Shown one piece after another: positions 13,474-29,566 of a stretch of DNA of 46,134 nucleotides. Every line of letters begins with the position of its first letter. The first letter of the stretch is position 1. This DNA is from a virus (lineage: Duplodnaviria; Caudoviricetes). Both the position numbers and the translations under genes were made by a program. The notes under the pieces were generated by a model that saw only the letters and a list, made by a program, of their open reading frames with translations, was not told the origin of the DNA and did no database searches. Location: IMG/VR virus record IMGVR_UViG_3300006046_000010, positions 1-46,134 of that record; one strand, written 5' to 3'.

Positions 13474-15828
13474 TTACTTGATTGGCTTGCGACTCTTCGG
13501 TTTCTTCTTGTAAACCATCTTGGTCACACTGCCGGTGATATTCCCTTTGGCGTCCCGAGTCACCTTTTGGACCTGCGACTCAGCCTGCGGTGCGTTGAAT
13601 TCGATCCTGGGCGGCTCGGCCTTCGGCACATTGACCACCACGTTCGGTGGGCGCACCTGAACGGGCGGGGCAGAGAACTGAACGACGGCCGGCTCCACGT
13701 TGATCGTGGGTGACTCCACGTTGATCACTGGACCGTCCACGTTGACCACAGGCGCCTTTTGTTCAGGCACGTTGAGTGTGACCACCGGGGCTGGCAGTTC
13801 AGGCATGCTAAAGTTGACCACAGGAGCTTCCTGGGCCGTCTGTGCGGGCATGTTGATGTTGATCACCTGACCTGGAGGCTGGGGGCTGGCGGCCTTCCTG
13901 GCCAGCACAAGGTCTCGCGTCTTGACCCCGAACTGAATGATCCGGTCGAGCCGTGCAGTCATCTTCTTCGTGCTGGACTTCTTCGGCTTGCTGCCGTTGG
14001 AGCCATTGCCGCCAGCAACCGGAGCGTGCCTGCCCTTGGCGTCGAGTCCTGCGGCGCGGTTCAGGTCTTCCGTGCTTGGCTCTTCTGGGCACATTTCTTC
14101 CGCGGTTGCCTCGTCGAGACCGAAGACGGTCATCAGGGTTTGCTTGGCGCTTTCGCGATCGATCGTTCCATCTCCAACTCCCTTGAATAGATCGAGTAGT
14201 TGCTTGACGCCCTTGTCTCCAAGGACATCGATCGACCCAGCAGGAGGCGGAGGAATCGGGGTTGGCGTGAGGTAGGCTGCCTTCTGAGCGGTGATGTCTG
14301 GCCACAGCCCCTTGGCGAAAACCTCGACCGGCAGTTGATTCTCTTCGCCGACGCTGATTGCCGTGTTGGCAGCGGTGGCGTTGGACACAAAGACTTCGCG
14401 AGGAGTGTAGCCGTATTTGCCGGCCACGTCAGAGATCGGAATGACACCGAAGCCGACACCGGCAATGTCGTTCTGCATCTCGTATCCGGCGTCGGTTGTG
14501 ATCCATGGACCGAAGTGCCATTCACACTTCTTCCAGTTGGGGTGGCCAGGAATGAGTTGCTGGGCAATGCCTTGAGCGAGAACTTTCTGGCGCACGCGAT
14601 CGAGGATCAAGGACTTGAGCACGTTGTCCTGCCAGTATTGGATTTGCCGCAGGGCTCCCTGCACTTCAATGCGAGCTGTCACGCCGCCGAGAGATAGAAG
14701 GTCCCACAGGAACCCGTAGGGCAGGTTGAGAGCGTTCGCCATCTTGCGAATGAGCATTTGCCAGAGAGCCATGGCCGAGCCGCTGGGGCGGGACGCTGGC
14801 GACATCATAGAGATCTGTTCGCCCTCTCCCATCCTGAGGATCTTGCCCCACATTGCATCCTGGGTCGGCGTGCCCTCCTTGGTCTGTCCGCTCCATGCGT
14901 CAGGACCCGTGTTCTTAAACGGGTCTTTGGTTGTGAACATGGCTGCGAACTGAGACTGGACTTTGCCCGCGATCTTCTCGGCTTCGATTGTCTCTCGCAG
15001 GTCTCTCAGGTCGTTCAGGATGCGAAGGAGTTTTGTGCGACCGCGATACTCGTCTGCTCTGTCTGGGTCAAAGACGTGGATGAAGGCTTCGACCGGCACG
15101 TCCTCGTGGTTGGTGTATTGGTTGGACCGAGTGCGCTGGAAGACGCGATAGAACTCAACACTGCCTCGCTCGGGGTTAAGTCCGACTCCGCCGATGTAAT
15201 GCTCGTCAGTGGTTGAATCGTTGGGGCTGCCGATGCGGTCTGCCTCAATGTTTTGCAGGGAGAACTCCCTGATTGGGACTCCGGTGTTTGGATCGTAAAC
15301 GGGCTCCACTTCCACAAAACCGTGGTCTCCATCGACCAGGAATGCGAGAAGGGCCATCTGAACCTGTTTCAGGAAGCGGTGACGGCCGGTGTAGTCGCAT
15401 CGAGTGCGACCCGTCTCAACGTCCCGCTCGTCTCCGCACCAGCCGTGGAAGTAATCGTCGTAGGCTTGATCGAGAGCTTCGTCTCCGGTCGTGCTCTTGC
15501 AGTGGAGTCTGCCGCAGACGTAGAGGACAACCTTCGCTAGGACTCCGCCAATCCAGTCGTATTGCGCTGCATCCCTGGCGTCCGCCATCGCCTTGAGGCG
15601 GTCTCGGTCGGCGATCCACGTTTCCGATCCTCTGATCGGCTTGGCTTTCCCGCGACGCTCTGGCGTGTCGTTATATCCGAACTGATGCAGGATTGTCCTG
15701 GCCTGCAGCGCCTTGACGCCATAGGAGGGACTGAAGAGCGAGATCGTCCGGTCTATGAAGTTGAGGTGGTGCGCCGGCTGGTCGTCACCTTTCTCGACTT
15801 TGGTCACTACGGGAAGAATGGTGCTCAC
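13474..15828 (-). CDS. Portal protein, lambda gpB family, with long C-terminal extension
   Basis: IEADRI, GGV, FIHVFDPDRADEYRG, W..P.I motifs; follows gpW-like gene with GTGA overlap. Confidence 0.9.
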   Translation of the reverse strand: MSTILPVVTKVEKGDDQPAHHLNFIDRTISLFSPSYGVKALQARTILHQFGYNDTPERRGKAKPIRGSETWIADRDRLKAMADARDAAQYDWIGGVLAKVVLYVCGRLHCKSTTGDEALDQAYDDYFHGWCGDERDVETGRTRCDYTGRHRFLKQVQMALLAFLVDGDHGFVEVEPVYDPNTGVPIREFSLQNIEADRIGSPNDSTTDEHYIGGVGLNPERGSVEFYRVFQRTRSNQYTNHEDVPVEAFIHVFDPDRADEYRGRTKLLRILNDLRDLRETIEAEKIAGKVQSQFAAMFTTKDPFKNTGPDAWSGQTKEGTPTQDAMWGKILRMGEGEQISMMSPASRPSGSAMALWQMLIRKMANALNLPYGFLWDLLSLGGVTARIEVQGALRQIQYWQDNVLKSLILDRVRQKVLAQGIAQQLIPGHPNWKKCEWHFGPWITTDAGYEMQNDIAGVGFGVIPISDVAGKYGYTPREVFVSNATAANTAISVGEENQLPVEVFAKGLWPDITAQKAAYLTPTPIPPPPAGSIDVLGDKGVKQLLDLFKGVGDGTIDRESAKQTLMTVFGLDEATAEEMCPEEPSTEDLNRAAGLDAKGRHAPVAGGNGSNGSKPKKSSTKKMTARLDRIIQFGVKTRDLVLARKAASPQPPGQVININMPAQTAQEAPVVNFSMPELPAPVVTLNVPEQKAPVVNVDGPVINVESPTINVEPAVVQFSAPPVQVRPPNVVVNVPKAEPPRIEFNAPQAESQVQKVTRDAKGNITGSVTKMVYKKKPKSRKPIK

Positions 15829-16088
15829 TGTGGGATCTGGCTGAAGTCAGTTATGCCGACGCCGACATTGATCGGAGGCGGATTGATCACGATTGCGCCT
15901 CGCTCGCGCAGGACGTAGGCAATGGCGTTGAGCTGGTCCTGGATGTAGCGCGTGTCTTTCGTGAAGGACTTGGTGCCCATGGACTGCTGCTGCAGTGCGT
16001 CATCCTGGGCTTCCAGCTTCGTCTGAAGGGCCAGCAGGTCTTCCGTGGATTTCTGACGGAAGCGGAGAAGATGATCCTGCATGGCCAT
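15825..16088 (-). CDS. gpW-like head-tail joining protein
   Basis: 87 aa helix-hairpin(QSMGTKSFT)-helix immediately upstream of the portal; ATG chosen 14 nt after CGTTGACA. Confidence 0.7.
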   Translation of the reverse strand: MAMQDHLLRFRQKSTEDLLALQTKLEAQDDALQQQSMGTKSFTKDTRYIQDQLNAIAYVLRERGAIVINPPPINVGVGITDFSQIPQ

Positions 16089-16110: not shown

Positions 16111-16335
16111 CTGCAGCCCAAGGCAAGCTCTTAAATTTTCAATGCAAATTTGCAGCCGCCGTTTCCACCAAAAAGTAAAAGTTATACCTAACTACGTTTA
16201 CGGGGAAATAGAGCGCAAACCTCTATGGAGGGATGAATTTGAGTTCTGCCAATTCCAGAATTTTTGGTTTGGCGTGGAAGGATGATTTCCCTCCTGGTGA
16301 TCGGAACGCGCCTGGTAGCGCTGATGATCCGAATA

Positions 16336-16346
16336 GTTCATTGACA
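16336..16346 (+). promoter_or_regulatory. boxA-like antitermination element GTTCATTGACA
   Basis: Resembles rrn boxA (TGCTCTTTAACA/GTTCTTTGA); preceded by a hairpin; no -10 at sigma70 spacing after TTGACA. Confidence 0.35.
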
Positions 16347-16349
16347 TTA

Positions 16350-17380
16350 TCTGACTGAGCATTTGCGCTCACGCAGCACGCCGGGGTTTTCCCTGCGTGC
16401 CGCTACTGCTATGCCGATTTGGACCGGCATTTGAACTTCCTTGGCGGGTGGTTCACGGATAACTTATTCCGACAGTCTCTATTTCCGCAAGGAAATTCTG
16501 CGCATCTGATCACAACGATGAGGCCGAACGGTCAAATGTCCTGGGGGTTACTAACAGGGTCGAGACCGCGCTCCAGGTGTATCTCAAGGAGGCACCAATA
16601 TTCACGGCCTGCGCCCGTAGGGGAAGTTTCCCCGAAAGGCATTCGATTCAGACACGGACGAGCTGGCAGCTCGCGTTACACAAGTCTGAGTTGATTAAGC
16701 GTCCAGCAAATTTCGGTGAGTAAGCCGAGCTGCTGGGGTGACAACGCATGAGAAGCTACGGGGAGAACAACTCCCCTAATCCATTACCTAGAGGTGAACC
16801 CAGTCGATGCGCAGCGCAGGTGGTCCTGCTGTAGCACCAACGGGGGTGGATAGCGAAAAGGATGAAGTCCGGCGGAATAAATGCCGACCGGACAGCGCAA
16901 CAAGATCGCCGATGCAGTGAAACTAAACGTCGGCGTGTAATTAACAACCTACCCTGGAAACCCGGCAACGGGAAAACTTGGAAGTCAGGATGCCGTCCGC
17001 ACGCGCGAATAGGCGCGGAACAGACAAAGATATGAGACGGCTACCAGAGGCACCTGACGTTCGGTGCTTGATTGAAAGATGGTGTCGCTAACGCGACCGA
17101 GCCTTGCCATCGAATGAAGTCAAGCATCCGCCACCTACCAAACTGAGTTCGCTCAGAGTGGCGCACGGGGGATCGAGCCTTCGCGAGAAGGTAGTTCTGG
17201 ATGGCGTCGATTTGAATTCGACGAGCAATCCGGGGCAACGACTCCGAGGGGATTGGCGCTAGGCCAGTCCCCTCCAGTCGTTATCCAAGGAAACCAAGAT
17301 AACGAACAAGGGAGCTGCCGCAATCGCGTCACTAAGACGCGACCGGCATCACCGCCCATATGAAGCTCCGTGGGCAGTTA
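16350..17380 (+). ncRNA. Candidate large structured non-coding RNA (about 1 kb; ends approximate)
   Basis: More than 20 consecutive stems; GCAA/GCGA/UUCG tetraloops on the + strand; nested long-range helices; no credible ORF in an otherwise gene-dense genome. Confidence 0.7.
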
Positions 17381-17401
17381 GATAGAAAGAAACATAACGT
17401 T

Positions 17402-17869
17402 ATGAGTCAACGCGCACATATCAACCAAACGCCCGAGACGCATCCTCACCTCTACAGAGAGGTCCAACACAGCGAGGTCGCTGCGGGGGATGTCTACAAG
17501 GGCACGAAGCTGGGCCGTCGCACTCGCACCTACAAGTGGTATGCGAATACCGAGGGCCAGAACTGCGTGGATAAGCATCGGCGGTATTTCCGTCCGAACA
17601 CGCCGATCCCGCAGTCTGCGCTCGGGCCGGTGCTGGCGAAGAAGCATCAGCGGTCCACCGAGGGTGCATCGCCGGCTCCATGCTCGGCCCCGTCCTCGGC
17701 TGCGTCCGAGGCCCCTCAGCACGCGCCGGGCGCCCCATGCGCCGCGGGTCCTATGGAGGAGGACGACGATGAGGCCATCGAGTTGTTCATGGTCTCGATC
17801 GCTGTCAGTAAGTCCGGCCTCCGTCGGGCAATGGCGATCCTCAATGGGGACGCCGACGCTAACGGCTAA
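17402..17869 (+). CDS. Hypothetical protein, N-terminal QTP..HPHL domain (paralog A)
   Basis: ATG after A-rich AGAAAG leader; N-domain aligns with 17939..18220; Pro/Ala linker and acidic C-terminal domain. Confidence 0.8.
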   Translation: MSQRAHINQTPETHPHLYREVQHSEVAAGDVYKGTKLGRRTRTYKWYANTEGQNCVDKHRRYFRPNTPIPQSALGPVLAKKHQRSTEGASPAPCSAPSSAASEAPQHAPGAPCAAGPMEEDDDEAIELFMVSIAVSKSGLRRAMAILNGDADANG

Positions 17870-17875
17870 GAGCAA

Positions 17876-17928
17876 TTCGCTCTAACCTGCCACCGGGGAG
17901 CCTGCGTCCCCGGTGGTAACGGAGCGGA
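17876..17928 (+). promoter_or_regulatory. Intergenic long stem with internal loop (RNA processing/terminator candidate)
   Basis: TGCCACCGGGGA/TCCCCGGTGGTA (17888-17918) on an outer stem TTCGCTCT/GGAGCGGA. Confidence 0.55.
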
Positions 17929-17938
17929 AATTATAGCC

Positions 17939-18220
17939 ATGGGCGTTGAGATACTACTGCGGCAAACGCCGCTCAGTCATCCTCACCTCTTCACGATCGT
18001 TCCTTTCAAGAGCGTTCGGAGAGGTGATGTCTTCCAGGGAAGATCAGACGGGTCGAAGTGGTTTGAGAACACTGACCCGAGTCACAAGCAAAGCAGGCAC
18101 ACCTACTGGCGCAAGAAGGCGACCGTCAGCAAGAAGCCTGTGAAGAAGAAGCCTGCGCCTAAGAAGAAGCCGGTCAAGAAAAAGCCGGTGGCGCGTAAGG
18201 CGACGAAGAGGCGTCGCTAG
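17939..18220 (+). CDS. Hypothetical protein, QTP..HPHL domain plus histone-H1-like Lys-rich tail (paralog B)
   Basis: 93 aa; KKPVKKKPAPKKKPVKKKPVARKATKRRR tail. Confidence 0.85.
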   Translation: MGVEILLRQTPLSHPHLFTIVPFKSVRRGDVFQGRSDGSKWFENTDPSHKQSRHTYWRKKATVSKKPVKKKPAPKKKPVKKKPVARKATKRRR

Positions 18221-18266
18221 TTCCAATCTGCCGATCGGGTCCAAACCCCGGTCGGCAGTCATGGGA
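18221..18266 (+). promoter_or_regulatory. Intergenic long stem with internal loop, similar to 17876..17928
   Basis: CTGCCGATCGGG/CCCGGTCGGCAG (18228-18258) on an outer stem TTCCA/TGGGA. Confidence 0.55.
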
Positions 18267-18335
18267 GTAGATACGCCCAGGGGTAAACAATCCGCGAGAA
18301 AGCCCCTCTCGCACCAATAGAAAGAAAATAAAACT

Positions 18336-18518
18336 ATGGCTATTCACACGCCTAAAAACAAGCTCAGCAAACACGCACACAAGGCCATTCGCAATGGTCG
18401 GCGCCGCGATGCCAAGTCGGATCGTCGCGCTCTTCAGCGGGCTCTCAACGGCCTCAAGCGGGTCATGGGTGACCTGACCGAGAACATCGAGAGCATCCTC
18501 GAAGAGGGGGCTCGGTAA
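18336..18518 (+). CDS. Small basic helical protein
   Basis: 60 aa; AGAAAG A-rich leader. Confidence 0.75.
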   Translation: MAIHTPKNKLSKHAHKAIRNGRRRDAKSDRRALQRALNGLKRVMGDLTENIESILEEGAR

Positions 18519-18519
18519 T

Positions 18520-18933
18520 ATGGAAACCATTACCTTCTCAGGGCAGCGAGTGAAGTGTCAGCGAGACGAAATTGGTATTCTTCCAAACGGAGACAAGGTG
18601 GTCGTGGCGACAGATTCCGCCGGATCGCAAATCATTGTTTCCGGGGAAGAGACGCACTTGCTCAGCAGGGCGTTCAAGGATCACGAGGCGGCCTGTGACG
18701 CAGCTAAGCGCGTCATGGTTGCAGGAAATCCCGAGGAGGCGTTCGGCTGCGGCTGGACCAACTTGCGGACTGCTGGCCTCGGGGAGTCGCTGTTTGCTGC
18801 ATTCATGGGGGCATTCGTGCCACCTAACAAAGGCAAGACTTCGCCCGATCGGGGGCCGTCGGCCATCTATCAACACCTGTTTCCCGACGATCCAGATGGA
18901 ACGGGTGAAACTCAAACAACAGAAAGGAAATAA
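18520..18933 (+). CDS. Hypothetical protein
   Basis: 137 aa; GAGGGGG SD; abuts the previous gene. Confidence 0.7.
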   Translation: METITFSGQRVKCQRDEIGILPNGDKVVVATDSAGSQIIVSGEETHLLSRAFKDHEAACDAAKRVMVAGNPEEAFGCGWTNLRTAGLGESLFAAFMGAFVPPNKGKTSPDRGPSAIYQHLFPDDPDGTGETQTTERK

Positions 18934-18937
18934 TTCA

Positions 18938-19396
18938 ATGACACGAATAGATAAAATTGTCCGACTCGTGGCGGTCGGTTTCAGCGCCACACGATTGGGG
19001 GAGTCCTCAAATGAGGACCTTGAGAAAACATACATCGCCGCGGGTCCGCTTATGGAAGCCCAGGACACGGAGGTAGCGAAGGTCTTGTCCCAGGAGAAGA
19101 CCAACTCGAAGCGGTTGAAAGCGGAGATCACTGGTCGCGTGCGCGACGAGCATCTCCAGAAGAGGTGGAACGCCAGGTGGAAGCCGCTTCCACCGATCTG
19201 CACGGTAGGTGCGGACGTGGACGGATACATGACGGCCATCCGTGGCTACAAGAGGGTCTACGAGGATAACGTCGCCCTGTTCAGGGCGTCCGGCCATCGG
19301 CGCTTCGCTGATGCCGCCAACAAGGCCAAGAAGTCCATGCAGCACCTTCAGGGGCAACTCTTGCACCTGTCGGAAAAGGCGGGAGGTGCCTCTTGA
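18938..19396 (+). CDS. Hypothetical helical protein (MTRIDKIV...)
   Basis: ATG after GAAAGGA SD; C-terminal part of track ORF 18572..19396. Confidence 0.75.
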   Translation: MTRIDKIVRLVAVGFSATRLGESSNEDLEKTYIAAGPLMEAQDTEVAKVLSQEKTNSKRLKAEITGRVRDEHLQKRWNARWKPLPPICTVGADVDGYMTAIRGYKRVYEDNVALFRASGHRRFADAANKAKKSMQHLQGQLLHLSEKAGGAS

Positions 19397-19803
19397 TAAC
19401 GCGAGCGGAATCGGCCGGCGGGCTCATGGTCAGGATCGCCTACTTCGGGGACACTGAACCGAACGTGGTGGTCCTGGAGCCGCCCGGCGAGCCTACGATC
19501 GACATCGAGTTCGTAGACGGGGAGGAGGAGAGGTGGCTCCTCATGGAGCATAAGGGTATCAGGATCTACCACACCACGAGGCATCAGGACATGTTCTCGG
19601 ACTACTACTACTCCACAGAGCGAGGAAGGGACTCCGACGACAGTGAGCCAGAGGTGTTCGACGTGTCGGATCTCGCTCCTATCCCTGTCGAGGAGGCCGG
19701 TAACTATGCCGACCTGTTCCCCGATAACGACGATAAACGGTTGATCGCCTACGCGATCGACCAAGGAAAAATAGATGAGGGCGGACTCGTTGATGAGTCC
19801 TGA
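19393..19803 (+). CDS. Acidic hypothetical protein
   Basis: TTG start after GGAGGT, overlapping the previous stop. Confidence 0.75.
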   Translation: MITRAESAGGLMVRIAYFGDTEPNVVVLEPPGEPTIDIEFVDGEEERWLLMEHKGIRIYHTTRHQDMFSDYYYSTERGRDSDDSEPEVFDVSDLAPIPVEEAGNYADLFPDNDDKRLIAYAIDQGKIDEGGLVDES

Positions 19804-19841
19804 CCTCAAATCAACAACAACACTGAAAGGAAAAAACACAC

Positions 19842-21098
19842 ATGAAGTTTCATGGAGACATACACATATCGGATAGCATGTGGCGGATGCTGATCTTGCG
19901 CAGGCATGACTCAGACTGCCTCAAGCTGCTCGTGGGAGGGCTGGAGCGACTCCAGTCCAACCTGCACGTAACTGGTTACGAGCCGGGCAGTGACCGCACT
20001 CGAACCCAGCTTCAGCGCTACACAGGGGTAGGCAGGTTGGTGCCGGTGATGAGCCGGGTCATCAATAGCGCAATGCCGGGGAATTACTTCTCCTTCCGCG
20101 AGAAGGAGGGGATGATTTCCTACATGCCAAAGGGCAAGGCGCAACAGATCGTCGAGGGCGGCGTCTGGAGCAGGAAGGGGCGTCAGTCGATGAAGCCGGC
20201 CAGGTGGATTAAGATGATGCTTAATCCGCGACTGGCGAGGCGGATCAAGGACAACGTGTTCGCCGAGTTCAACGATGTAGTTAAACACGAGGAGTTGAAG
20301 GGCAAGCTGGAGTTCAAGCTGGTTGGAGTGCAAGAGGGTTACACCTCTGCTTACTTCAAACAGCCCATTAGCTCCTGCATGTGGGAGAATGATGTCGCCC
20401 CGTTCTACGAGGCGTTCGGATGCGAGGTCCTTGTAGCGACCAGTGCAGACTACACTGGATACGTTGGGAGGGCCTTGGTTTGGCCTGACGTGACGTTCGA
20501 CGGCAAGCCGGAGAAGCACATATTTATGGACAGGATTTATGTGTGGAACAACAGTCCTGAACTCACCCTCGCCTTCAGGGAGCATGCCCTGATGAAAGGG
20601 TGGTGGACGAAGCGGAATCAATCCAAGGAGGTCGCTGAGTTCATCGATCCGAATGGGGAGATTCAGTCTCACGCCAAGGTGACATCCGAGACGACGAAGG
20701 ATCTGACGCAAATACGCTTCTTTCCGTATTGTGACACGATGGCCTTTGGGGGTGACACTTGGGTATCCAACGACGGCAATACGCCCGGCAAGAAGTTCTC
20801 CTACCGCTACACTGGCGGCCAAAGGAGTGACAGGCAGGAAGGCATGGTCCAGGACGTTACTGGTGTCTGGATTCCTCGGGAGACTGCGGTGCAGATCGCA
20901 GGTTACTGGTATCGTCCAGATAGCGCCCTGATTACGAGGTGCGCTATCGGGGGCAACTTCGTTATCAAGGCTCGCTGCATCTGGGTCAACTACATTGACC
21001 GTGATCACCCGGAGGGGCTGTATATTAGCATCTCCCGAATCAGGGCCGGCGGCCCGCGCGGCATGAGTGGCGGTGATATCATTCGGAGGTGGTGGTAA
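19842..21098 (+). CDS. Conserved phage protein with SCM / GRALVW / MDRIY / PYxDT motifs (possible GNAT-like/PcfJ-like enzyme)
   Basis: 418 aa; GAAAGGA SD; motif set recalled from phage proteins adjacent to M28 peptidases; fold assignment tentative. Confidence 0.6.
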   Translation: MKFHGDIHISDSMWRMLILRRHDSDCLKLLVGGLERLQSNLHVTGYEPGSDRTRTQLQRYTGVGRLVPVMSRVINSAMPGNYFSFREKEGMISYMPKGKAQQIVEGGVWSRKGRQSMKPARWIKMMLNPRLARRIKDNVFAEFNDVVKHEELKGKLEFKLVGVQEGYTSAYFKQPISSCMWENDVAPFYEAFGCEVLVATSADYTGYVGRALVWPDVTFDGKPEKHIFMDRIYVWNNSPELTLAFREHALMKGWWTKRNQSKEVAEFIDPNGEIQSHAKVTSETTKDLTQIRFFPYCDTMAFGGDTWVSNDGNTPGKKFSYRYTGGQRSDRQEGMVQDVTGVWIPRETAVQIAGYWYRPDSALITRCAIGGNFVIKARCIWVNYIDRDHPEGLYISISRIRAGGPRGMSGGDIIRRWW

Positions 21099-22306
21099 TG
21101 GAGGGCATGGATGAGCTGTTGAAGCTCCTGGCTGTCCCCACTCACACTGGTCATACCGAGGCGATGTATGAGTTCCTTCGCGTGATTGGAACTCAGCGTG
21201 GCTGGAAGTTGTATTACGACGAGAAGTGGAACCTCTACGCTGTCAAAGGCGAGGGAGATGTCGCCACCTATCCGTGCGTAGTGGCCCACATGGACACGGT
21301 GCATCACATCGAGAAGGAGGGCAGCATTATGCCCCTCGTTATCGATGGCAATATTATCGGGTTTAACCCCGCTAAGATGCAACTGACGGGGATAGGAGGG
21401 GACGATAAGTGTGGTATCTGGGCAGCCATTTACTGCATGGATCGGCTGCCTGCCTGCAAGGCCGTGTTCTTCGTTGACGAGGAGCGCGGGTGTCAGGGCT
21501 CGGGGAATTGCACTATGGGGTTCTTTGCGGACTGCCGTTACATTCTCCAGGCTGACCGCAGGGGTAACGCTGACTTCGTGACCGACATCTGGGGTAAACT
21601 GTCATCCAAGGAGTTCCTGGATGCCGTGGACCCAGTGTTGGTGAAGTGGGGTTACAAGCACTCCGATGGGGCGATGACTGATGTCAGGGAGCTTCGCGAC
21701 AAAGGTGTCGGGATCTCAGTCGCCAACATGAGCGCGGGTTACTACCGCCCTCACAGTGATGGCGAGTTCATCAACATCAAGGACCTGGAGGAGTGCTGCG
21801 GGATGATGCTGGAGATCTTCGAGAAGGTGACGGATGTCTATCCGTTCGTCTACCAGAAGTGGTCTCCGCCGGCACCTGCGGCAACCAAGTCGTCCGGCAA
21901 GGGCCATTCCGTTCAGTCGTCATTCCCGGATTACGAACCGGAGGGTGGCGGTGGAGGGTTTGGTGGACTTGTCCGGTGTGACTACTGCGCCACGCTCACT
22001 CTCGTAAGGGAGCTGATTGAGGGTAGCGACGGAGTGGCTCCGTTCGTCTGCCTCGATTGCGCTCTCCACAAGGAGGAGCACGGGACCTATCCCAAGCTGG
22101 GCCTGAGGGACTTCTGGAGCCGTCTCAGTGGCGGTAAAACCAACGGTATGTCCCGAAAGGAGAAGCGTCGAGCAAAGAAGCGCTTCTACAGCATTAGGCG
22201 TAACGGCAAAGGCAAGGAGGAGGTGGTGGTCACTCACGGTGGTCCGCCTGGCTCGCCGGCTGCTGTCGTTGCGAAGGATGACAAGGACGATGAGGTCCCG
22301 TTCTGA
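21098..22306 (+). CDS. M20/M28-family Zn-dependent peptidase/hydrolase
   Basis: VAHMDTVH, GGDDKCG, DEERGCQGS, QADRRG, GYYRPH metal-ligand motifs; C-terminal CxxC..CxxC and DDEVPF tail; GGAGGT SD; TAATG overlap. Confidence 0.9.
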   Translation: MEGMDELLKLLAVPTHTGHTEAMYEFLRVIGTQRGWKLYYDEKWNLYAVKGEGDVATYPCVVAHMDTVHHIEKEGSIMPLVIDGNIIGFNPAKMQLTGIGGDDKCGIWAAIYCMDRLPACKAVFFVDEERGCQGSGNCTMGFFADCRYILQADRRGNADFVTDIWGKLSSKEFLDAVDPVLVKWGYKHSDGAMTDVRELRDKGVGISVANMSAGYYRPHSDGEFINIKDLEECCGMMLEIFEKVTDVYPFVYQKWSPPAPAATKSSGKGHSVQSSFPDYEPEGGGGGFGGLVRCDYCATLTLVRELIEGSDGVAPFVCLDCALHKEEHGTYPKLGLRDFWSRLSGGKTNGMSRKEKRRAKKRFYSIRRNGKGKEEVVVTHGGPPGSPAAVVAKDDKDDEVPF

Positions 22307-22315
22307 AACAACAAT

Positions 22316-22474
22316 ATGGGTAAAAACACAAAGGACCAAATACTGAAGGTGCTGGAGATCGTCGCTGAGGTATGCGGCGCTCTCCTTCTACTACTGCCCC
22401 TCGTCCACCTCCGACAACAAAGTCGGAGGGGGAGGGGGCGGAGAAAATCAACAACAAAGAAAGGAAGAAAATGA
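22316..22474 (+). CDS. 52-aa peptide with hydrophobic helix and basic tail (not in ORF track)
   Basis: MGKNTKDQILKVLEIVAEVCGALLLLLPLVHLRQQSRRGRGRRKSTTKKGRK; stop overlaps the next ATG (ATGA). Confidence 0.6.
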   Translation: MGKNTKDQILKVLEIVAEVCGALLLLLPLVHLRQQSRRGRGRRKSTTKKGRK

Positions 22475-22590
22475 ACCTACTGGCTCACGTAACCGAGCAC
22501 GTTCACATCCACGGCGAAGATCTTATCTCGTTCGTGATTGTGGCGCTGCTGCTGACATTCTTCTCGCTTATGGCGAGCAAGAGGAAGTGA
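22471..22590 (+). CDS. 39-aa single-TM peptide
   Basis: MNLLAHV...FVIVALLLTFFSLMASKRK; GAAAGGA SD. Confidence 0.65.
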   Translation: MNLLAHVTEHVHIHGEDLISFVIVALLLTFFSLMASKRK

Positions 22591-22591
22591 T

Positions 22592-22825
22592 ATGGCGCTT
22601 CGCCAATTCAACTTCGACGAAGACGATCCCGCCAAGGCCAACAAGGCGCTGATGGCAGCGCTGAAGGCCAAGGAGGAAAAGCTTGAGCGCCAGAGGCTCA
22701 AGCTGATCGCCGACGAGAAACGGTGGCTCCGCAAGAAGCGGCTCGCTACCACCAAACTGAAAAACATAACTGCTGCCAAAAGGCGGCTGCGGGCGCGGAT
22801 GCGCTCGCTCAAGAAAGGAACATAA
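22592..22825 (+). CDS. Basic coiled-coil protein
   Basis: 77 aa; GAGGA SD. Confidence 0.75.
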   Translation: MALRQFNFDEDDPAKANKALMAALKAKEEKLERQRLKLIADEKRWLRKKRLATTKLKNITAAKRRLRARMRSLKKGT

Positions 22826-22829
22826 AACA

Positions 22830-23078
22830 ATGACGCGAATACTAATACGGATGCGGATAAAGGCTGTTTGTCGCTGGCTGACCACAGGGGCCACCACGGC
22901 GATCTACAGAGTGGAGGTGGTGGAGAAGGTGGCGGTGTTCAACGGGAAGGCTCGATATACGATCAGGAGGACGGGATGGTGGAGCAAGCATGACTTCTCC
23001 ATGATTCTGCCTGACGATCTCTTCGATCTCGGGTTCACCTGCATCTCAACGACAGAGACAAGGGTGGTGACGAAGTGA
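22830..23078 (+). CDS. Hypothetical protein
   Basis: 82 aa; AAAGGA SD. Confidence 0.7.
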   Translation: MTRILIRMRIKAVCRWLTTGATTAIYRVEVVEKVAVFNGKARYTIRRTGWWSKHDFSMILPDDLFDLGFTCISTTETRVVTK

Positions 23079-23287
23079 ACCAATTCTGGATAGTTGGAAA
23101 ATCACTTGGGGAGACTGATCGCTGGGAGTTCCAGGGCCTCTTCGACGATAGGGAATTAGCTAAGTCGGCCTGCGTTGGGGATAACTACTTCATCGCTCCA
23201 GTATCCCTCAATGAAGCCATTGGGGACGAGACGAGTGATTGGCCTGGACTTACCTACAAAGGTCGAGATGGATGGGAGGTAAAATGA
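23075..23287 (+). CDS. Small phage hypothetical protein
   Basis: 70 aa; WEFQGLF..A...C motif; GTGA and ATGA-type overlaps on both sides. Confidence 0.7.
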   Translation: MNQFWIVGKSLGETDRWEFQGLFDDRELAKSACVGDNYFIAPVSLNEAIGDETSDWPGLTYKGRDGWEVK

Positions 23288-24786
23288 AATACCTCGATCA
23301 ATTCCGGGCCGCGCGGAGATCCGCGGCGCCGATCGTTGTCATACGAACGGCCGACTACGCCTCGGTCATCGAGGAAATCTCTGCGTTCTACAAAGGGAAG
23401 GAGGTGCCCATCCTCCAATGGGACCTCGCTCGTGGAATTAAGGGAGCGAACGATCTCGGGGCTCAGGCAGCCCTGGACTTGAACGCCAACGACCAAGGGC
23501 AGCCTGCAGCGATCATCACCGGCAATCCAGTGGAGGCGCTGCAGAAGGCGCTTCCGGGTCTGCCCACTCAGTCAATCCTCTTCATGATGAACACTCAGAT
23601 CATCCTGGAGTCGAAAGACTGGAACAGGCTGGGGGTCATTCAAGGCATCTGGAACTGCCGGGATGAGTTCAAGAAGAGTAAGCGGACGCTGGTCCTGCTG
23701 GTGCCGGACATGAAGGTGCCGCCTGAGTTGAGTAACGATGTGATTACTATCGACGTGCCCCTGCCTGACAGGGAAGCGTTGTGGAAGCTCACCATCGCAC
23801 AATTCAAGGCGGCCGGCCTGGAGGCGCCGAAGGATGACGTGATTGAGAAGGCGGTTCACGCCACGCTCGGTCTGTCCCTGTTCCTGGCTGAGAACGCGAT
23901 AGCAATGTCGCTCAGTCGGGAGGGGCTGGACATCGATAACCTGTGGCACATCAAACGCAGCGTTGTCCGGCAAACGTCCGGTCTGTCGGTGGCTGAGAAT
24001 AACACTCTCACCTTCGATCAGATTGGCGGGCTGGAGCCAGTGAAGGAGTTCTGCCGGTTTGAGAAGCCGTCCCTTACCGTCCTGATCGACGAGTTCGGGG
24101 ATCAGTTGGCTGGCAGGAACGACAGCAATGGGCTCAACGCTGACGCTCAGGCTACGTTCCTGCAGTCCATGGAAGATAACGGATGGGAGGGCATGATCCT
24201 GCATGGTGTGGCCGGGACGGGTAAGACCGAGATCGGCAAAGCGATGGGTAACGAGTCCGGCGGGCTCTTCATTAAATTCGACATGGGATCGATGAAGGGC
24301 AGTCTTGTGAGCGAGAGCGAGCGCAAGATCCGTGCGGCCGTGAACATCCTATACGCGATGGGAGGGAGGGAGGTGTTCTTCATTGGGACCACGAACTCCC
24401 TGGCTAACATCACCCCGCAGATGATGAGGCGGTTTACCGTCATCTTCTTCTTCGACCTGCTCGACAGGGCATCCCAGGATAAAATCTGGGCGCTCAAACT
24501 GAAGCAATACGGCCTGCCAGATCAGCCGTTGCCGAAGTATGACGGGTGGACCGGGGCGGAGATCAACAAGTGCTGCCGCCTGGCCGCCAAATGGAAGACG
24601 ACTCTTCTGAAGGCGTCCAAGTTCATTACCCCCGTAGTGAAGGCGATGGGAGACGATCTGAACAAGATGCGGAAGGAGGCTCACGGGAAATACCTCTCCG
24701 CGTCACGGTCGGGCTTCTACGACATGAGTGACGGCATGACGGAGAGCGCGATCAATGAGATCAGGCAAATAACCATGGAGGATTAA
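23284..24786 (+). CDS. Ycf46-like AAA+ ATPase with internally permuted ATPase domain
   Basis: Ycf46-type N-domain (WD..GI, PPEL...DVPLP); IGGL, VLIDE, GVAGTGKT, ESE, IGTTN, RRF, FFDL, GWTGAEI; GGAGGT SD. Confidence 0.9.
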   Translation: MKYLDQFRAARRSAAPIVVIRTADYASVIEEISAFYKGKEVPILQWDLARGIKGANDLGAQAALDLNANDQGQPAAIITGNPVEALQKALPGLPTQSILFMMNTQIILESKDWNRLGVIQGIWNCRDEFKKSKRTLVLLVPDMKVPPELSNDVITIDVPLPDREALWKLTIAQFKAAGLEAPKDDVIEKAVHATLGLSLFLAENAIAMSLSREGLDIDNLWHIKRSVVRQTSGLSVAENNTLTFDQIGGLEPVKEFCRFEKPSLTVLIDEFGDQLAGRNDSNGLNADAQATFLQSMEDNGWEGMILHGVAGTGKTEIGKAMGNESGGLFIKFDMGSMKGSLVSESERKIRAAVNILYAMGGREVFFIGTTNSLANITPQMMRRFTVIFFFDLLDRASQDKIWALKLKQYGLPDQPLPKYDGWTGAEINKCCRLAAKWKTTLLKASKFITPVVKAMGDDLNKMRKEAHGKYLSASRSGFYDMSDGMTESAINEIRQITMED

Positions 24787-24789
24787 AAA

Positions 24790-25119
24790 ATGCCTTGCGA
24801 CCAAATACAAAGATCGACAGTGCAGTCAGAGCTGAAGAACGTGGACTTCAAGCTGCTCAAGAAGGCCCTGTTGGCGATGGGGTTCACGGTCAACGAGAAG
24901 GCTGGGGGATACCTCACCTTCTACGGGGTCCACAAATCCACAGGGAAATACCACACTGGCACTTACCAGAATGGGAAGATGTCGGAGCAGGTTACGGGGC
25001 AGGCACAGCCCTTGGAGGTCAACGCCGTGAAGCGTAGCTACGCGGCCCAGATCGTGCAGGCGGGTTTCCCTGGGTGGAAGCTCGAACATACAGGCTCTCA
25101 CCAGGAGGTGAAATCATGA
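24790..25119 (+). CDS. DUF1257/Ycf35-like protein
   Basis: LLKKALLAMGF and ..SYA..V motifs; usual position after a Ycf46-like AAA. Confidence 0.65.
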   Translation: MPCDQIQRSTVQSELKNVDFKLLKKALLAMGFTVNEKAGGYLTFYGVHKSTGKYHTGTYQNGKMSEQVTGQAQPLEVNAVKRSYAAQIVQAGFPGWKLEHTGSHQEVKS

Positions 25120-25349
25120 TTGAAACCTACAAGCTAACAAAGGGCTCGGACGTGATTAACATCACCATCCTTAACGATGGGACCATCAAGACCGAGACAG
25201 ACAAGATCAGCGCTCCGAATCATTCGAGCGCTGAAGCGTTCCTGGCATGGATTGCCAAGAAGGCAGGCGGAGACACGACGCGAGTAGCTCGTGGAGCCGC
25301 TGCACATCATCAACATCAACACGAAACTGGGGAAGCCCACCAACACTAG
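25116..25349 (+). CDS. DUF2997-like small protein with His-rich tail
   Basis: I.I.I..DGTI..E motif; HHQHQH tail; AGGAGGTG SD; ATGA overlap. Confidence 0.65.
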   Translation: MIETYKLTKGSDVINITILNDGTIKTETDKISAPNHSSAEAFLAWIAKKAGGDTTRVARGAAAHHQHQHETGEAHQH

Positions 25350-25362
25350 AAAGTAAAACTAT

Positions 25363-25677
25363 ATGACCAAACACACATTGACTCACGAGCAGGTAATCGT
25401 CCTGTCTCAAAAGATGATCGCCAACAAGGCTCAGATTGAAGCCAAGCTGGCAAAGGGGGCCTCTATGGTAGACCTCGCGGCCATCTACAAGATTCCAATC
25501 ACGAGCTTTAAGCGTATCGCAAAGGCGTGCGGTATTGAGCTGCCGTTGAGAGAATCGACCAGGAAGGCTTCCAGCCTGCTCTTCAAGGACATCCTGGTAG
25601 TTCTGGAAAGGGTGGCTAAGGCGGGCGACATCCCTTACGACGAGATCAAGCCTTATCTGCAGGAGGGTGGAGAGTGA
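25363..25677 (+). CDS. Possible HTH DNA-binding protein
   Basis: 104 aa; GASMVDLAAIYKIPITSFKRIA resembles a helix-turn-helix. Confidence 0.55.
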   Translation: MTKHTLTHEQVIVLSQKMIANKAQIEAKLAKGASMVDLAAIYKIPITSFKRIAKACGIELPLRESTRKASSLLFKDILVVLERVAKAGDIPYDEIKPYLQEGGE

Positions 25678-26888
25678 TAAGTAGAGAGGACGCCGCGAAT
25701 CAAACGGTTCGCGTGAAGGTGAAGGATGCCAACCGGCTCGGACTGTTTGTTTGCAGTTCGATCGCTGTGGGGGCCGGCATGGCGGGGGAATTCTTGGACG
25801 ACGGTCAGGGGGCCGTCGTCCCTCTCGCCAACATGATCGAGGTCGTGGATAAGGTGAAGGCAGTCCAAGAGGCGCGTCAATGGAAGGAGGAGAAAAATAA
25901 GGCGCGGATCAAGGAGGTTGTGAAGAGTGTCGAGAATAGCCAGGAGGAGTTCTCGGGCACGATCATCCTGCATGTTGGATTCTCGGGTAGCCTGCCGAAG
26001 ACGAAGGCGCTCACCAAGGAGGAGAGGAAGATCTTCTCTGACTGGGCTGAGAAGCTGATCGCCAGGGAGACTGACGAGGACAGGATTAAGGCCATCAAAC
26101 AAATGCTGTCGAGCAACATGAAGCACGGCAAGACGCTCTTCACGAGTGACGAGTATGACGCGATCGAGGGGTTCAAGCAGAAGCGGAGGCAGGAGTTCGC
26201 GAATCTGGGCATCCCCTTCCCGCTGGGCGACTCCATGTATCTGATTCGTATTGCCAATATCCCGAAGGCTGAGGAGTTGGCGGCGAAGACGGAGCGTGAG
26301 CTGCAGGCGGTCGTGGAGCGCTTCAGTGAGGTCTACCCTTCGCAGATCACGAAGGAGGTGGTGGACTTAGGCCCGCTCTACAATGCGGGCGACTACAAGG
26401 CTCCTGAGGCCATCCCTGGCCTGTTTAAGTTCAAGACCAAGTGGATGCACTTCGGGACCCCCGAGATCCTGAAGGAAATCGATGCGGTGATGTGGGAGCG
26501 AGAGCGTGCCCGCACCGCGGCGGTCTGGCAGGAGGCGAAGGCGCAAGGGTTGATCCTGCTGCGGGAGACGATGGCGGAGATGGTGAAGCGGCTCGTGGAT
26601 GCCGTGACGCCTGACTCTGAGGGCAAGAAGAAGCGCTTCTACGCCACGGCCGTTACGAACCTGACCGACTTCTTTGAAGCGTTCGAGGATCGCAATATGG
26701 CCGGGGACGAGGAGCTGGCGGCACAGGTCGCCAAACTGAAGGAGTTGGTCGAGGGCAAAGATATCGATGCCTTCAAGACTGACGACAAACTGCGGGCGTT
26801 CGTGAAGAACGAGGGGTCGAAGATCCAGGAGTCCCTGGTCTCGATGCTCGTTCAGAGTGGCGCCCGCGCAATAACGTTCGACGATTAG
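25674..26888 (+). CDS. DUF3150-like helical protein
   Basis: 404 aa; YLI..A..L, YP...LGPLYNAGDY, F.F pattern; usual neighbour of this AAA cluster; ends RAITFDD. Confidence 0.6.
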   Translation: MISREDAANQTVRVKVKDANRLGLFVCSSIAVGAGMAGEFLDDGQGAVVPLANMIEVVDKVKAVQEARQWKEEKNKARIKEVVKSVENSQEEFSGTIILHVGFSGSLPKTKALTKEERKIFSDWAEKLIARETDEDRIKAIKQMLSSNMKHGKTLFTSDEYDAIEGFKQKRRQEFANLGIPFPLGDSMYLIRIANIPKAEELAAKTERELQAVVERFSEVYPSQITKEVVDLGPLYNAGDYKAPEAIPGLFKFKTKWMHFGTPEILKEIDAVMWERERARTAAVWQEAKAQGLILLRETMAEMVKRLVDAVTPDSEGKKKRFYATAVTNLTDFFEAFEDRNMAGDEELAAQVAKLKELVEGKDIDAFKTDDKLRAFVKNEGSKIQESLVSMLVQSGARAITFDD

Positions 26889-26898
26889 AAAGGGAACC

Positions 26899-27105
26899 AT
26901 GGGAGAAATGACGAAGACGAAAGCTAAGCCTCTCCGGCGCAGGAAGCGCCGTGGGAGCATGAGCGGTATGAGTGAGCCTGAGAAGATCATCAGGGCAGTT
27001 CAGAGCGCGGCTGCGGCCGTGACGATTGCCTACAAGGTCATCAAGCCACACATCCACAAACTGAAACGTAAGATGAAAAACAAGAAAGGACCTGTAACAA
27101 AGTGA
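26899..27105 (+). CDS. Small very basic protein
   Basis: 68 aa; K/R clusters flanking an Ala-rich helix; AAGGGA SD. Confidence 0.65.
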   Translation: MGEMTKTKAKPLRRRKRRGSMSGMSEPEKIIRAVQSAAAAVTIAYKVIKPHIHKLKRKMKNKKGPVTK

Positions 27106-27485
27106 GTAAAATACTGAACATCGATCAAATGCTGAATGCGGCGGAGGACGCCGGACTGCCAAGCTTCCAACTGCGGACGCGGCAGGCGGAGATGGTGGCG
27201 GAGTCCCTCGGGCGTGACCTGGCTGAATTCCTGGACATAAAGGCCGGTCGCGCTGAGTGGGCCTTTGGGATATTGGCCGTGGACTTCGATCCCAAGTATC
27301 GCAGTCAGGAGTGCCCCCTCGTGATACACAAGGGCGACCCCGGCGGGGACTGGGACGCTCCCCACGAGGACATTCCGGGAGAGCCTCTGGTCTTGCGGAG
27401 ACCCAAGAACAAGAAGAGGCGGCGGCCATTCATGGTATGGCTCAAGTCCCACTTCTTGAGCAAGGAGGTCAAAGAAGCCTTATGA
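27102..27485 (+). CDS. Hypothetical protein
   Basis: 127 aa; GTGA overlap; AAAGGA SD. Confidence 0.7.
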   Translation: MSKILNIDQMLNAAEDAGLPSFQLRTRQAEMVAESLGRDLAEFLDIKAGRAEWAFGILAVDFDPKYRSQECPLVIHKGDPGGDWDAPHEDIPGEPLVLRRPKNKKRRRPFMVWLKSHFLSKEVKEAL

Positions 27486-27865
27486 CCGTCATGAAGACAC
27501 CAGATGACCTGGATGTGTTCGGGCCGGATCAAATCGATATCACGCGCCACCTGGAGGCTGGAGGCAAGGATAAGCGGGATAGGTTGGTGTTGTTCGCGGC
27601 CAAGACGCAGAACGACATCGATGCGTTTCGCACGCTACGCGGGCTGTCCCTGCCGGACTGGCAGCGTGCTGCCTACGAGGCTCACCAGATGGCCAAGAGC
27701 GATCCTGATAACAGCTCCCTCAAGCTGATAGCCACAGCCGCGTGGAACATGGTTCGTTACCTCCAGGAGGCGACCGCCTACTCGGAGATGTTCGTTAAGG
27801 ACCCCGCCTTCATTGAGCAGACGACACGGGCCGGTATTAAGTTGCCGGAGATCGCAGAGGATTAG
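27482..27865 (+). CDS. Hypothetical helical protein (MTVMKTPDD...)
   Basis: ATGA overlap; AGGAGG upstream; last gene of the + operon. Confidence 0.75.
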   Translation: MTVMKTPDDLDVFGPDQIDITRHLEAGGKDKRDRLVLFAAKTQNDIDAFRTLRGLSLPDWQRAAYEAHQMAKSDPDNSSLKLIATAAWNMVRYLQEATAYSEMFVKDPAFIEQTTRAGIKLPEIAED

Positions 27866-27871
27866 AAGCAG

Positions 27872-27902
27872 ATGGGCGCGAGGTTCAACCCCTCGCGCCC
27901 AT
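27872..27902 (+). terminator. 12-bp hairpin between convergent operons (terminator or T-loop minihelix)
   Basis: ATGGGCGCGAGG-TTCAACC-CCTCGCGCCCAT; no clear U-tract. Confidence 0.5.
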
Positions 27903-28015
27903 GTCCCGTTGCTCTCGGATAGCCGACGCCTTCAACGGTTGAGGCGCTAGAAAGGAGGATTAACAAAGAAACCTCATTCCGGCAACGCTCCGTGGAGTTA
28001 CGTCTCATGTCCGCA

Positions 28016-29185
28016 TTACGGCACAATAATGCGGCCGCTGTTTTGTTTTGGCAACTGTATAATCGGTGAGACAAGCTTGAGAGCTTCCTCGACCACCTGT
28101 TCGGGTGGTATCGCTGCTAGGGCCACGCAGTAGCCTTTGTCGGTGCAGGGCATACCGGCAGGGAATTGATCAGATCGCTCGGCATGGAAGAAACAGGGTG
28201 AGCATGGTGCCTCCCCGAAGAGTCCCTTGCCGTTCTTGCCGCTGCCGCGTAGCTGTGGCGGTATCGGGCCGTAGAGGCCGATGTAGGGCACTTCGAGGGC
28301 CGCGGCGACGTGGACCATGGCCGAGTCAGGTGAGATGATGCAGTCGCAGGACTTGGCTAACGCCGCACTCCTTCTGAAGGTGGCGTCGAATGACGGATCG
28401 GTCAGATTCGTTAGGCCGGGAGGCAGGTCGCCCTTCATGGTTAACTGCCCTTTGGTTCCAAAGAGGAAAACTTCAATGTCGTGATCCATGAGCAGCTTAA
28501 TGACCTTCTCGGTGTGCGGGTAGGTCCGGTAGAGGGCGGAAGCCATGTATTGAAGGCCGACGCGCTTCTTGGCGGTCCTGGGGAACGTAGCCTCTCTCCA
28601 CAGCTCCTCCTCCTCACTGATAATGAAGTCGGGCTTGTGGTTGCCGTCGAGATCGAGCCCGAGCTTGTTGGCGAAGTGCTGAGCGATGTGAACCTTCTCG
28701 GCCCCTGGGTGTCCCTCGATCCAATCCTCGAATGCTACCAGGATCGTGACGGACTCGTTGGGGCCGGCGAGGAGCTTGTCGTAATCCATTGGGATTGATT
28801 CCTCGATTACCCCCAGTCCGTTGAAGAGACCCTTGTGGGATTCCCCCATGGCGACATGGACAATACAGCGCGGCCAACGCTTTTTGAGTTCTCGGATTGT
28901 CGGGGTCAGCATCAGGAGATCGCCCCACCCTCCAGCACGCATGAGCCAGATGTGGGCTCCGTTCCAGTCGAGCTTGGGGTTGAACTCCTGCTCCACGAAA
29001 TGATCAACTTTGATTAAGGACCGCAGGCTCCATGCCTCCTCGTCGATTACCACCCTCCAGGGCGTGAGCATCAGGGCGCCAGCGAAGGCGTTGGTGCAGA
29101 TGTATTCCTTGCCAGCTTCGAGCGGCTGCCCGCCAGCGACAGGGATGGGTTCCGAGATTCCTTCAGGTATCGTGAGAATGTGCAT
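28016..29185 (-). CDS. Glycosyltransferase family 9 (heptosyltransferase-like)
   Basis: RAGGWGDLLMLTP, SPDSAMVHVAAAL.VP..GLYGP, PCSPC motifs; start at MHILT after AAGGAAG. Confidence 0.9.
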   Translation of the reverse strand: MHILTIPEGISEPIPVAGGQPLEAGKEYICTNAFAGALMLTPWRVVIDEEAWSLRSLIKVDHFVEQEFNPKLDWNGAHIWLMRAGGWGDLLMLTPTIRELKKRWPRCIVHVAMGESHKGLFNGLGVIEESIPMDYDKLLAGPNESVTILVAFEDWIEGHPGAEKVHIAQHFANKLGLDLDGNHKPDFIISEEEELWREATFPRTAKKRVGLQYMASALYRTYPHTEKVIKLLMDHDIEVFLFGTKGQLTMKGDLPPGLTNLTDPSFDATFRRSAALAKSCDCIISPDSAMVHVAAALEVPYIGLYGPIPPQLRGSGKNGKGLFGEAPCSPCFFHAERSDQFPAGMPCTDKGYCVALAAIPPEQVVEEALKLVSPIIQLPKQNSGRIIVP

Positions 29186-29558
29186 GTGGCTTCCTTGATT
29201 TGATCGCTGCGTCGATGGCGGCGGCCATGACTTTGTGTTTTCCGTTTTCGTAATACTGGTGGCAGGCGGCGCAGCCCCGAGCGGCCTCGCGCCAATCCTT
29301 TGCTGTGACAATGAACCGACTCTTTACTTTGTGGCACCACTGGAGCATTCGATTGCCGATACAGACCCCTGGCACCCGAAGCTCACAGACCTTCGTAACT
29401 TCCGGCCCGAGCTTGTTCATGTCTCGGTTCGCGGCCGCCCGCTCCTTGGTGCGTTTACCGATCGGGAAGCCTTTGCCGTTCCCGCTGCGGGCCGGGAACT
29501 CCCTCTTCGGCTTGAAGAAGGAGTCCTCCGACCGAGGCTTAATCATGCTGCCGCCCAT
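29163..29558 (-). CDS. Zn-binding HNH/NinG-like nuclease
   Basis: CELRVPGVC..WCH..GCAACH motif. Confidence 0.6.
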   Translation of the reverse strand: MGGSMIKPRSEDSFFKPKREFPARSGNGKGFPIGKRTKERAAANRDMNKLGPEVTKVCELRVPGVCIGNRMLQWCHKVKSRFIVTAKDWREAARGCAACHQYYENGKHKVMAAAIDAAIKSRKPHAHSHDT

Positions 29559-29566
29559 AGCGGGCC

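Follow-up and report, generated by a model that had tools for sequence, protein, structure and literature searches.

Genomic Setting of the Element

The window (the whole stretch of DNA analyzed here, a linear viral record, 46,134 bases long and 63% complete) belongs to a tailed phage with genes for portal, terminase, DnaB, RecT-like, and ParB-like proteins, as identified by PHROGs/Pfam scans. Its structural operon points leftward, and a rightward series of small genes, by content and orientation probably the early operon, starts at 17402. The stretch that separates the two had been described in an earlier note as free of long open reading frames; 16121-17360 indeed contains no start-codon ORF of at least 100 aa. 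No reading frame is conserved in the element body among the homologs described below, and a coding reading was discarded, the single blastp pair (E 1.5e-4) falling over the promoter block. The features that frame the element and make up its leader are as follows:

13474-15828, minus strand: portal gene, in the structural operon after the small gene at 15825-16088
15825-16088, minus strand: small conserved gene, first of the divergent structural operon, which marks the common position of the element
16163-16197, plus strand: conserved promoter/operator block, CCWCCAAAA ... GTTA-N4-TAAC, which aligns across the 7 copies
16248-16321, plus strand: leader hairpins, that at 16308-16321 being GCGC-CUGGUA-GCGC
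16336-16346, plus strand: boxA-like element GUUCAUUGACA, a NusB/S10 site by resemblance and the sole strict-pattern match in the 46 kb window
17402-17869, plus strand: first early ORF 3' of the element, not common to the other RNA-bearing phages

The phage DnaB has Chthoniobacterales/Verrucomicrobiota proteins as its best named relatives (~63-69% identity), and soil metagenomes are the source of all seven runs containing the stretch; the host is thus likely a soil member of the Verrucomicrobiota, and soil Verrucomicrobiota are likely what the other carrier phages infect as well.

Several smaller features surround the element. The inverted repeat GTTA-N4-TAAC (16181-16192), between the divergent operons, is a candidate repressor or activator site. 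A TTGACA at 16108-16103 (minus strand) lies 14 nt ahead of the ATG of the small structural gene and recurs ~14 nt before the first structural gene ATG in most relatives (L003, L021, L023, L033, L047, L049, L160, and L164); as this distance to the ATG is too short for a sigma-70 -35 box, the motif may instead be a late promoter mark or a translation signal. The ORF at 17939-18220 (plus strand) encodes 93 aa with a lysine-rich, histone H1-like tail, and its N-terminal part is apparently paralogous to the ORF at 17402. Further away, 28016-31875 (minus strand) holds host-type accessory genes, namely those for a family 9 glycosyltransferase, a ParB-like protein, GroES, and an FkbM methyltransferase.

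Occurrence Among Related Phages

The phage family was gathered via portal, small-gene, and terminase searches, and the comparison set consisted of 25 loci plus the window, after removal of duplicate entries and of L012 and L048, two loci that extend barely or not at all upstream. An ORF-poor folded stretch occupies the same place in six relatives, whole in L002, L021, L023, and L033 and cut by contig ends in L160 and L049, and sense-strand folding z scores among these homologs were -9.2, -3.5, -7.0, -2.7, and -8.3. The promoter block, the leader hairpins, and the boxA-like motif are common to all 7 copies, whereas the element is missing at that position from the other 19 relatives compared. 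Among these, L008 (5545-5440, minus strand), L011, and L046 retain the promoter block and ~150 nt of structured leader without a boxA, and L047 has a different short element in place of the long RNA.

The copies fall into two sub-types. The first comprises the window, L033, L160, and L049, wherein the window aligns locally to L033 with a score of 59 (vs 28.6+-3.0) and to L049 with a score of 79 (vs about 29), while L033 and L160 are collinear across 640 nt (score 101 vs 29+-4). The second, looser sub-type comprises L002, L021, and L023 (L002-L023 score 64, L002-L021 score 60), which overlap with the window only in the leader, boxA, M2 outer helix, and 3' stem; body similarity to the window was not detectable for L021 (z 0.8) or L023 (z 0.3). 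The distance from boxA to the 3' stem was 949, 829, 826, 803, and 521 nt in the five copies in which it was measured, that of the window being ~950 nt. The window has ~150 nt that are absent from L033, and L023 is without the first domain.

Mapped onto a portal tree with 25 rows, the element requires 4 changes, with at least 2 gains or losses forced by well-supported branches. The window RNA is closest to those of L033 and L160, the portals of which sit in a different 100/100 clade from that of the window, whose nearest portal is that of L002. This patchy distribution and portal-tree discordance would fit an exchangeable accessory module. Beyond the family, the element was not found in INPHARED phages, GTDB genomes yielded no close family member, and 401 Verrucomicrobiota genomes yielded no element (matches of 22-27 nt in 8 of the 401 being at chance level) and no instance of the M4 pattern. 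Searches of IMG/VR outside the family with three patterns returned, respectively, known loci only, nothing, and L160 plus a match in L254, which was dismissed as chance since it falls inside the coding sequence of an unrelated RNA virus.

Promoter Block, Leader, and boxA-Like Element

The promoter block is visible by eye also in relatives lacking the long RNA (L008, L011, and L047), and a sigma-70 consensus scan returned 0 promoters. Downstream, the hairpin at 16308-16321 covaries to GCGU/ACGC (3 copies, one C-G to U-A change), and its location just upstream of boxA suggests a boxB-like position; the first leader hairpin (16248-16273) is apparently common as well, but its register could not be fixed and it was left out of the counts. 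The boxA-like motif follows in the form GUUC(U/A)UU(A)GA(C/A/U), 177-259 nt into the aligned leader of every long copy, the window version (GUUCAUUGACA) having an A at the fifth position relative to a GYUCUUURA(C/A)A-like pattern. It is present in 7 of 7 long copies vs 0 of 19 other loci in the same interval, a contrast qualified by labels that were assigned in partial knowledge of boxA and by 3 negatives with <900 nt of upstream sequence. Given that the RNA-less relatives keep the promoter and early operon and yet have no boxA (0/19), the motif follows the long untranslated RNA rather than the operon.

The setting of the motif, shortly after a promoter and hairpin and ahead of untranslated RNA, agrees with the known pattern. 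According to PMC13753749, the boxA consensus is UGCUCUUUAACA in E. coli and AUGAUCUUUGAAA in B. subtilis, and boxA shields untranslated rRNA and CRISPR RNA from Rho. Similar motifs occur in the likely host phylum: 13 of the 25 Verrucomicrobiota 16S leaders with sufficient upstream DNA (from 30 loci fetched) contain one, vs 0.4% of shuffles, and the Opitutales genome G043 has the pattern at two sites, one 164 nt before 16S and the other ahead of 23S. The phage leaders thus resemble those of rRNA operons and CRISPR arrays, in which a hairpin and then boxA likewise precede a long untranslated RNA, and the motif itself matches the 16S/23S leaders of the host phylum. Unlike an rRNA operon, however, the element is phage-borne, precedes non-rRNA, and has no leader-trailer helix: a pre-rRNA-like helix of this type was not significant in any of 5 phage copies (p 0.06-0.92) vs 4 of 13 host leaders, and the rest of the phage leader did not align to host leaders.

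A leader of this kind could also act solely in cis, as an antitermination element of the nut/put type in which boxA and the folded RNA modify RNA polymerase for read-through of the early operon and the released RNA has no task of its own, with an N-like arginine-rich phage peptide perhaps serving as helper. The place of the element as the first in the operon and the hairpin upstream of boxA would suit this reading, as would the small arginine-rich early ORFs at 18336-18518 (plus strand) in the window, at 5559-5362 (minus strand) in L002, and in L047, which we take to be reminiscent of lambda N-type antiterminator peptides. Nevertheless, the RNA-less relatives maintain the same promoter and early operon without boxA, an arginine-rich ORF is found in the RNA-less L047 as well, and the conserved core extends 180-900 nt downstream of boxA, whereas nut and put elements need far less downstream RNA than that; a purely cis-acting leader is therefore considered rather unlikely.

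A separate small hairpin, AAGUCUCC-CGAUAA-CGGAG, is conserved just upstream of early start codons in L023 (4827-4808, minus strand), L008, L046, and L011, and occurs in RNA-bearing and RNA-less phages alike.

Folding, Strand, and Conserved Modules

The stretch had been singled out for its density of helices, and all 11 helix segments quoted for it read as claimed. The expectation that it would fold better than shuffled sequence also held (16400-17390, z -7.75 on the plus strand and -4.87 on the minus strand, 20 shuffles), but three coding kilobases of the same operon gave z -6.22, -5.60, and -6.61, so that folding energy does not distinguish the element and helix density by itself is not diagnostic in this phage. 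The early operon as a whole (17000-28000, plus strand), coding DNA included, folds far beyond shuffles, at z -5.6 to -6.6 per kb, and 120-nt windows at z < -3 are dispersed along it. Nor can folding energy fix the strand, as a noisier run on 16330-17400 with 8 shuffles only reversed the ranking (z -8.1 on plus and -10.3 on minus). A better guide is the bias of GNRA- and UUCG-capped hairpins, which the earlier note had read on the plus strand: across the 7 copies, 12 are sense and 0 antisense, vs 2.7 in shuffles, and this places the RNA on the plus strand.

The same observations bear on whether the palindromes instead belong to a DNA element, such as a replication origin, packaging region, or terminal repeat, with merely RNA-like symmetry. 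Its location where two operons diverge and the good folding of the antisense strand are what such an element would present; against it stand the changes that keep G-U pairs, the 12:0 strand bias of tetraloops, and the presence of boxA, as well as the remoteness of the replication genes of the window (33.8-36 kb). A terminal repeat or second copy was considered in light of the ~2x depth of X3 and X5 over 16214-17370, and was rejected because depth is flat on one contig in X1 and X2 and because X3 and X5 also break at the same places elsewhere, marking the doubled depth as an artefact. A DNA element is accordingly judged most improbable.

The conserved parts of the RNA body, all on the plus strand, are as follows:

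16521-16610: M2 core three-way junction, with outer helix AGGCCG/CGGCCU, inner helices, and conserved joins GCUC and UUCA/CUCA
16654-16680: M3, ACGG(A/C)CG ... CGCGU(U)ACA, common to L033 and L160
16867-16944: M4, with a helix at 16867-16893 bearing a AAUAAAUG loop and a helix at 16907-16935 between CGCAACA and UGUAAUU
16984-17058: M5, nested multibranch GUCAGG/CCUGAC, GCCGU/ACGGC, and CGCG/CGCG, the outer helix being found by sequence-only search
17206-17222: hairpin GUCGA-UUUGAAU-UCGAC with a T-arm-like loop, its stem invariant in L033

As MAFFT and RNAalifold mis-registered the modules, helix registers were set by hand from coordinates. The resulting set of 14 helices comprises 65 columns, 18 of which exhibit a change on both sides with pairing retained, and pairing is canonical in 189 of 193 cells as printed, the other 4 belonging to L021 at one base off and being fully canonical in the correct register; one end pair, A-C in L002, was trimmed from these counts. 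All 36 cells of the M2 outer helix, which was compared in 6 copies, are canonical, with a double change in 3 of its 6 columns, and the inner M2 helices covary among the window, L033, and L160; a third arm, paired in all three of these copies with unrelated sequence, was left out of the counts, and an H-type pseudoknot in M2 was rejected, as it fits the window and L033 but fails in L160. RNAalifold gave no consensus structure for M3. M4 and M5 covariation rests on two sequences, the window and L033, between which the first two M4 helices display 3 double changes next to an invariant CGCC/GGCG and M5 displays G-C to U-A and U-A to G-C double changes. The CGCAACA and UGUAAUU flanks in M4 are, speculatively, a possible T-loop pair.

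A random-substitution null on the helix arms gave 3e-12 for L033 and 4e-6 for L160, values that are too favorable, being conditional on hand-set registers, and an unbiased test of window pairs mapped via sequence-only alignment was not significant for either L033 (12 of 24 changed pairs kept, p 0.15) or L160 (7 of 15, p 0.56). In L033, 46 of 58 mapped pairs nonetheless hold in register vs 20-27 when slid, and a sequence-only search for long-range complementarity common to the window and L033 returned 6 matches, 4 of which are registered helices; the M2 outer helix and 16529/16568 were found by sequence-only search. Neither a conserved kissing loop nor a pseudoknot was found, nor, between the window and L033, conserved loop-loop pairing. 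The 9-bp long-range helix that had been proposed to join 16498-16506 to 16806-16814 exists in the window and was recovered in no homolog, its 3' arm falling within ~16690-16845, a stretch absent from L033.

Covariation, the complementarity search, the tetraloop bias, and the lack of a conserved frame together support an RNA structure on the plus strand. The locus thus carries a conserved, non-coding, structured element in 7 related phages, and the RNA is very probably real.

The 3' Stem and Related Intergenic Stems

Three stems, all on the plus strand, are of an RNase III-like build:

17237-17282: 3' stem with asymmetric internal loop, GAC-NCC-G..C-MA-GUC, a candidate RNase III site ending the RNA
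17876-17928: second RNase III-like stem, downstream of the first early ORF (z -4.1)
18217-18270: third RNase III-like stem, downstream of the second early ORF (z -4.6), of the same form in L008 and L011

The first of these had been noted as a 12+7 bp stem; the stem is present, but its architecture is 6 bp, a UCC/CA internal loop, and 12 bp. All 5 copies that are complete at the 3' end retain it, with compensatory changes. Similarly built stems directly follow early genes in RNA-less phages, namely L008 (5156-5104 and 4803-4756, minus strand) and L011 (5176-5121, minus strand), and L046, which is also RNA-less, has three copies. The family takes the form GCAGAC-NCC ... CA/CG-GUCUGC or GUUCC-AAC ... 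CAU-GGAGC. A scan with the stem pattern returned 2 matches in the window vs 1 in a shuffle, along with several off-target matches in other records; with so weak a scan, it is the intergenic placement that constitutes the evidence.

These stems are likely RNase III processing sites in the style of T7, whose R1.1 site is formed by a stem of 60 nt that contains an asymmetric internal loop and is located between early genes; the early T7 sites are likewise ~20-bp stems with such a loop in intergenic positions (PMC6121014). Unlike R1.1, to which they are unrelated in sequence, the first site here would end a non-coding RNA, and cleavage here is predicted from shape. By this analogy, the stem at 17237-17282 probably terminates the RNA.

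Were the polycistronic transcript instead to contain several independent small RNAs (decoys, antitoxin mimics, or sponges), gained and lost singly and processed apart, the modular differences among copies would be readily understood: ~150 nt of the window are absent from L033, L023 lacks the first domain, and few modules are common to the sub-types. The modules, however, are collinear over 640+ nt and include nested junctions, the single RNase III-like stem is at the 3' end, and neither an Rfam small RNA nor a tRNA was detected. A cluster of this kind is improbable, and the collinear nested domains favor one RNA.

Comparison With Known RNA Families

The earlier note had been unable to assign the RNA to a class, and an Rfam scan of the window bore this out, with nothing at gathering score and three chance matches at E <= 10; the homologs had no Rfam family match either. 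ARAGORN found no tRNA or tmRNA in the window, and tRNA genes numbered 0 in the window and G001-G003 (four RNA-bearing records, partly incomplete). A degenerate tRNA array was also considered and rejected, relaxed ARAGORN settings producing 5 inconsistent calls on mixed strands.

Models for RNase P, group I/II introns, HEARO, and small ribozymes gave no match at E <= 10 or E <= 5, a result of consequence for the idea that the leader harbors a catalytic or mobile RNA, be it an ORF-less intron-like element or a new large ribozyme. Patchy presence, discordance with the portal tree, a complex fold, and short conserved joins are all traits that such an RNA might display, but the site is always the same, PHROGs/Pfam scans (46 and 30 window ORFs) revealed no reverse transcriptase or nuclease partner, and no early protein, nor any other candidate partner protein, is common to all carriers. 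We consider this idea very unlikely.

The closest likenesses are to the large RNAs of other phages. GOLLD is characterized, in PMC12286853, as a structured RNA of 800+ nt from phages and prophages with variable and conserved parts and unknown purpose, and ROOL, in PMC5737381 and PMC12286853, as a large phage-associated accessory ncRNA with multistem junctions. The element resembles GOLLD in being a large structured phage RNA with conserved and variable parts, but it is not near tRNA genes, its conserved parts are the leader and M2, and its carriers are likely Verrucomicrobiota phages; GOLLD (RF02032) had no match at E <= 10 in the window and none in the homologs. Like ROOL, it is large, accessory, and phage-borne, with junctions in M2, M4, and M5, but it is longer, no conserved pseudoknots were found in it, and it does not sit in a tRNA island; ROOL (RF03087) had no match in the window or homologs, and an additional ROOL search was blank, though its controls were silent too. 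A third model, MISL (RF03079), had no match at E <= 10, nor was there one in the homologs; MISL is a motif of Verrucomicrobia, the likely host phylum, and is also large (751 model positions), but the element here is in phages and was not found in the 401 Verrucomicrobiota genomes searched.

With a length of >500 nt, no coding capacity, a hand-registered covarying multistem structure, and residence in phage genomes, the element has, as far as its sequence indicates, the attributes of the large ornate phage ncRNAs. In kind it belongs with GOLLD and ROOL, but it fails to match the models that define membership in either family. The element was not found in print; single modules may be in the alignment files of PMC10690425, which were searched in part. 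That IMG/VR survey presents RNA candidates of 29-151 nt only, and a search of 6 of its supplementary files with four record ids, a contig name, and a motif found nothing.

Proposed Biogenesis and Role

The conserved position, the protein-free folded stretch, the lack of a match to any catalogued family, and the rRNA-like leader make a new class of large phage RNA the likely explanation. The earlier proposal of a large structured RNA on the plus strand, of uncatalogued class and opening the rightward, presumably early operon, is thus supported by its recurrence at the same position in 7 phages, compensatory changes, tetraloop bias, and lack of an Rfam match; the boxA leader and the RNase III-like nature of the 3' stem are features that the proposal did not include. 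Our preferred reading, with a probability of roughly 0.55, is that of a large accessory phage ncRNA of the GOLLD/ROOL kind that is transcribed under Nus antitermination, released by RNase III, and active in trans.

Host RNA polymerase would initiate at the divergent early promoter, after which boxA would load the host NusB/S10 antitermination complex as it does on rRNA, allowing the kilobase of untranslated RNA to escape Rho and to fold co-transcriptionally. RNase III would then cut the stem at 17237-17282, and likewise the similar intergenic stems of the early operon, so that a stable RNA would be freed from the early mRNA. Finally, and this is the weakest step, the RNA may serve early in infection as a trans-acting folded scaffold or decoy, as proposed for GOLLD and ROOL, most likely by binding host factors for RNA handling or defence.

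A bolder version, which we regard as doubtful, treats the locus as a mock rRNA operon that borrows host rRNA antitermination to mass-produce a giant first transcript, such that a ribosome-like decoy or RNA-only particle blunts translation-targeting defences of the host, likely from a very abundant lineage of soil bacteria. The RNA might, for example, form a paired T-loop platform at M4 gripping tRNA elbows, or a nanocage.

To our knowledge, few bacterial and phage RNAs reach this size and complexity; those described so far are ribozymes or, in the case of GOLLD and ROOL, RNA-only cages whose purpose is unknown. A further ~1 kb class, along with its natural size variants (521-949 nt) and RNA-less close relatives, would provide new targets for cryo-EM and probing with a built-in comparison. 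The strict tie to a host-type boxA suggests a use of rRNA antitermination by phages for ncRNA production, and the combination of promoter, boxA, and long gap provides a simple means of searching for further large phage RNAs. Other gaps of ~1 kb without ORFs of at least 110 aa are present in relatives of the window, at 4501-5683 in L020 and 1031-1980 in L021.
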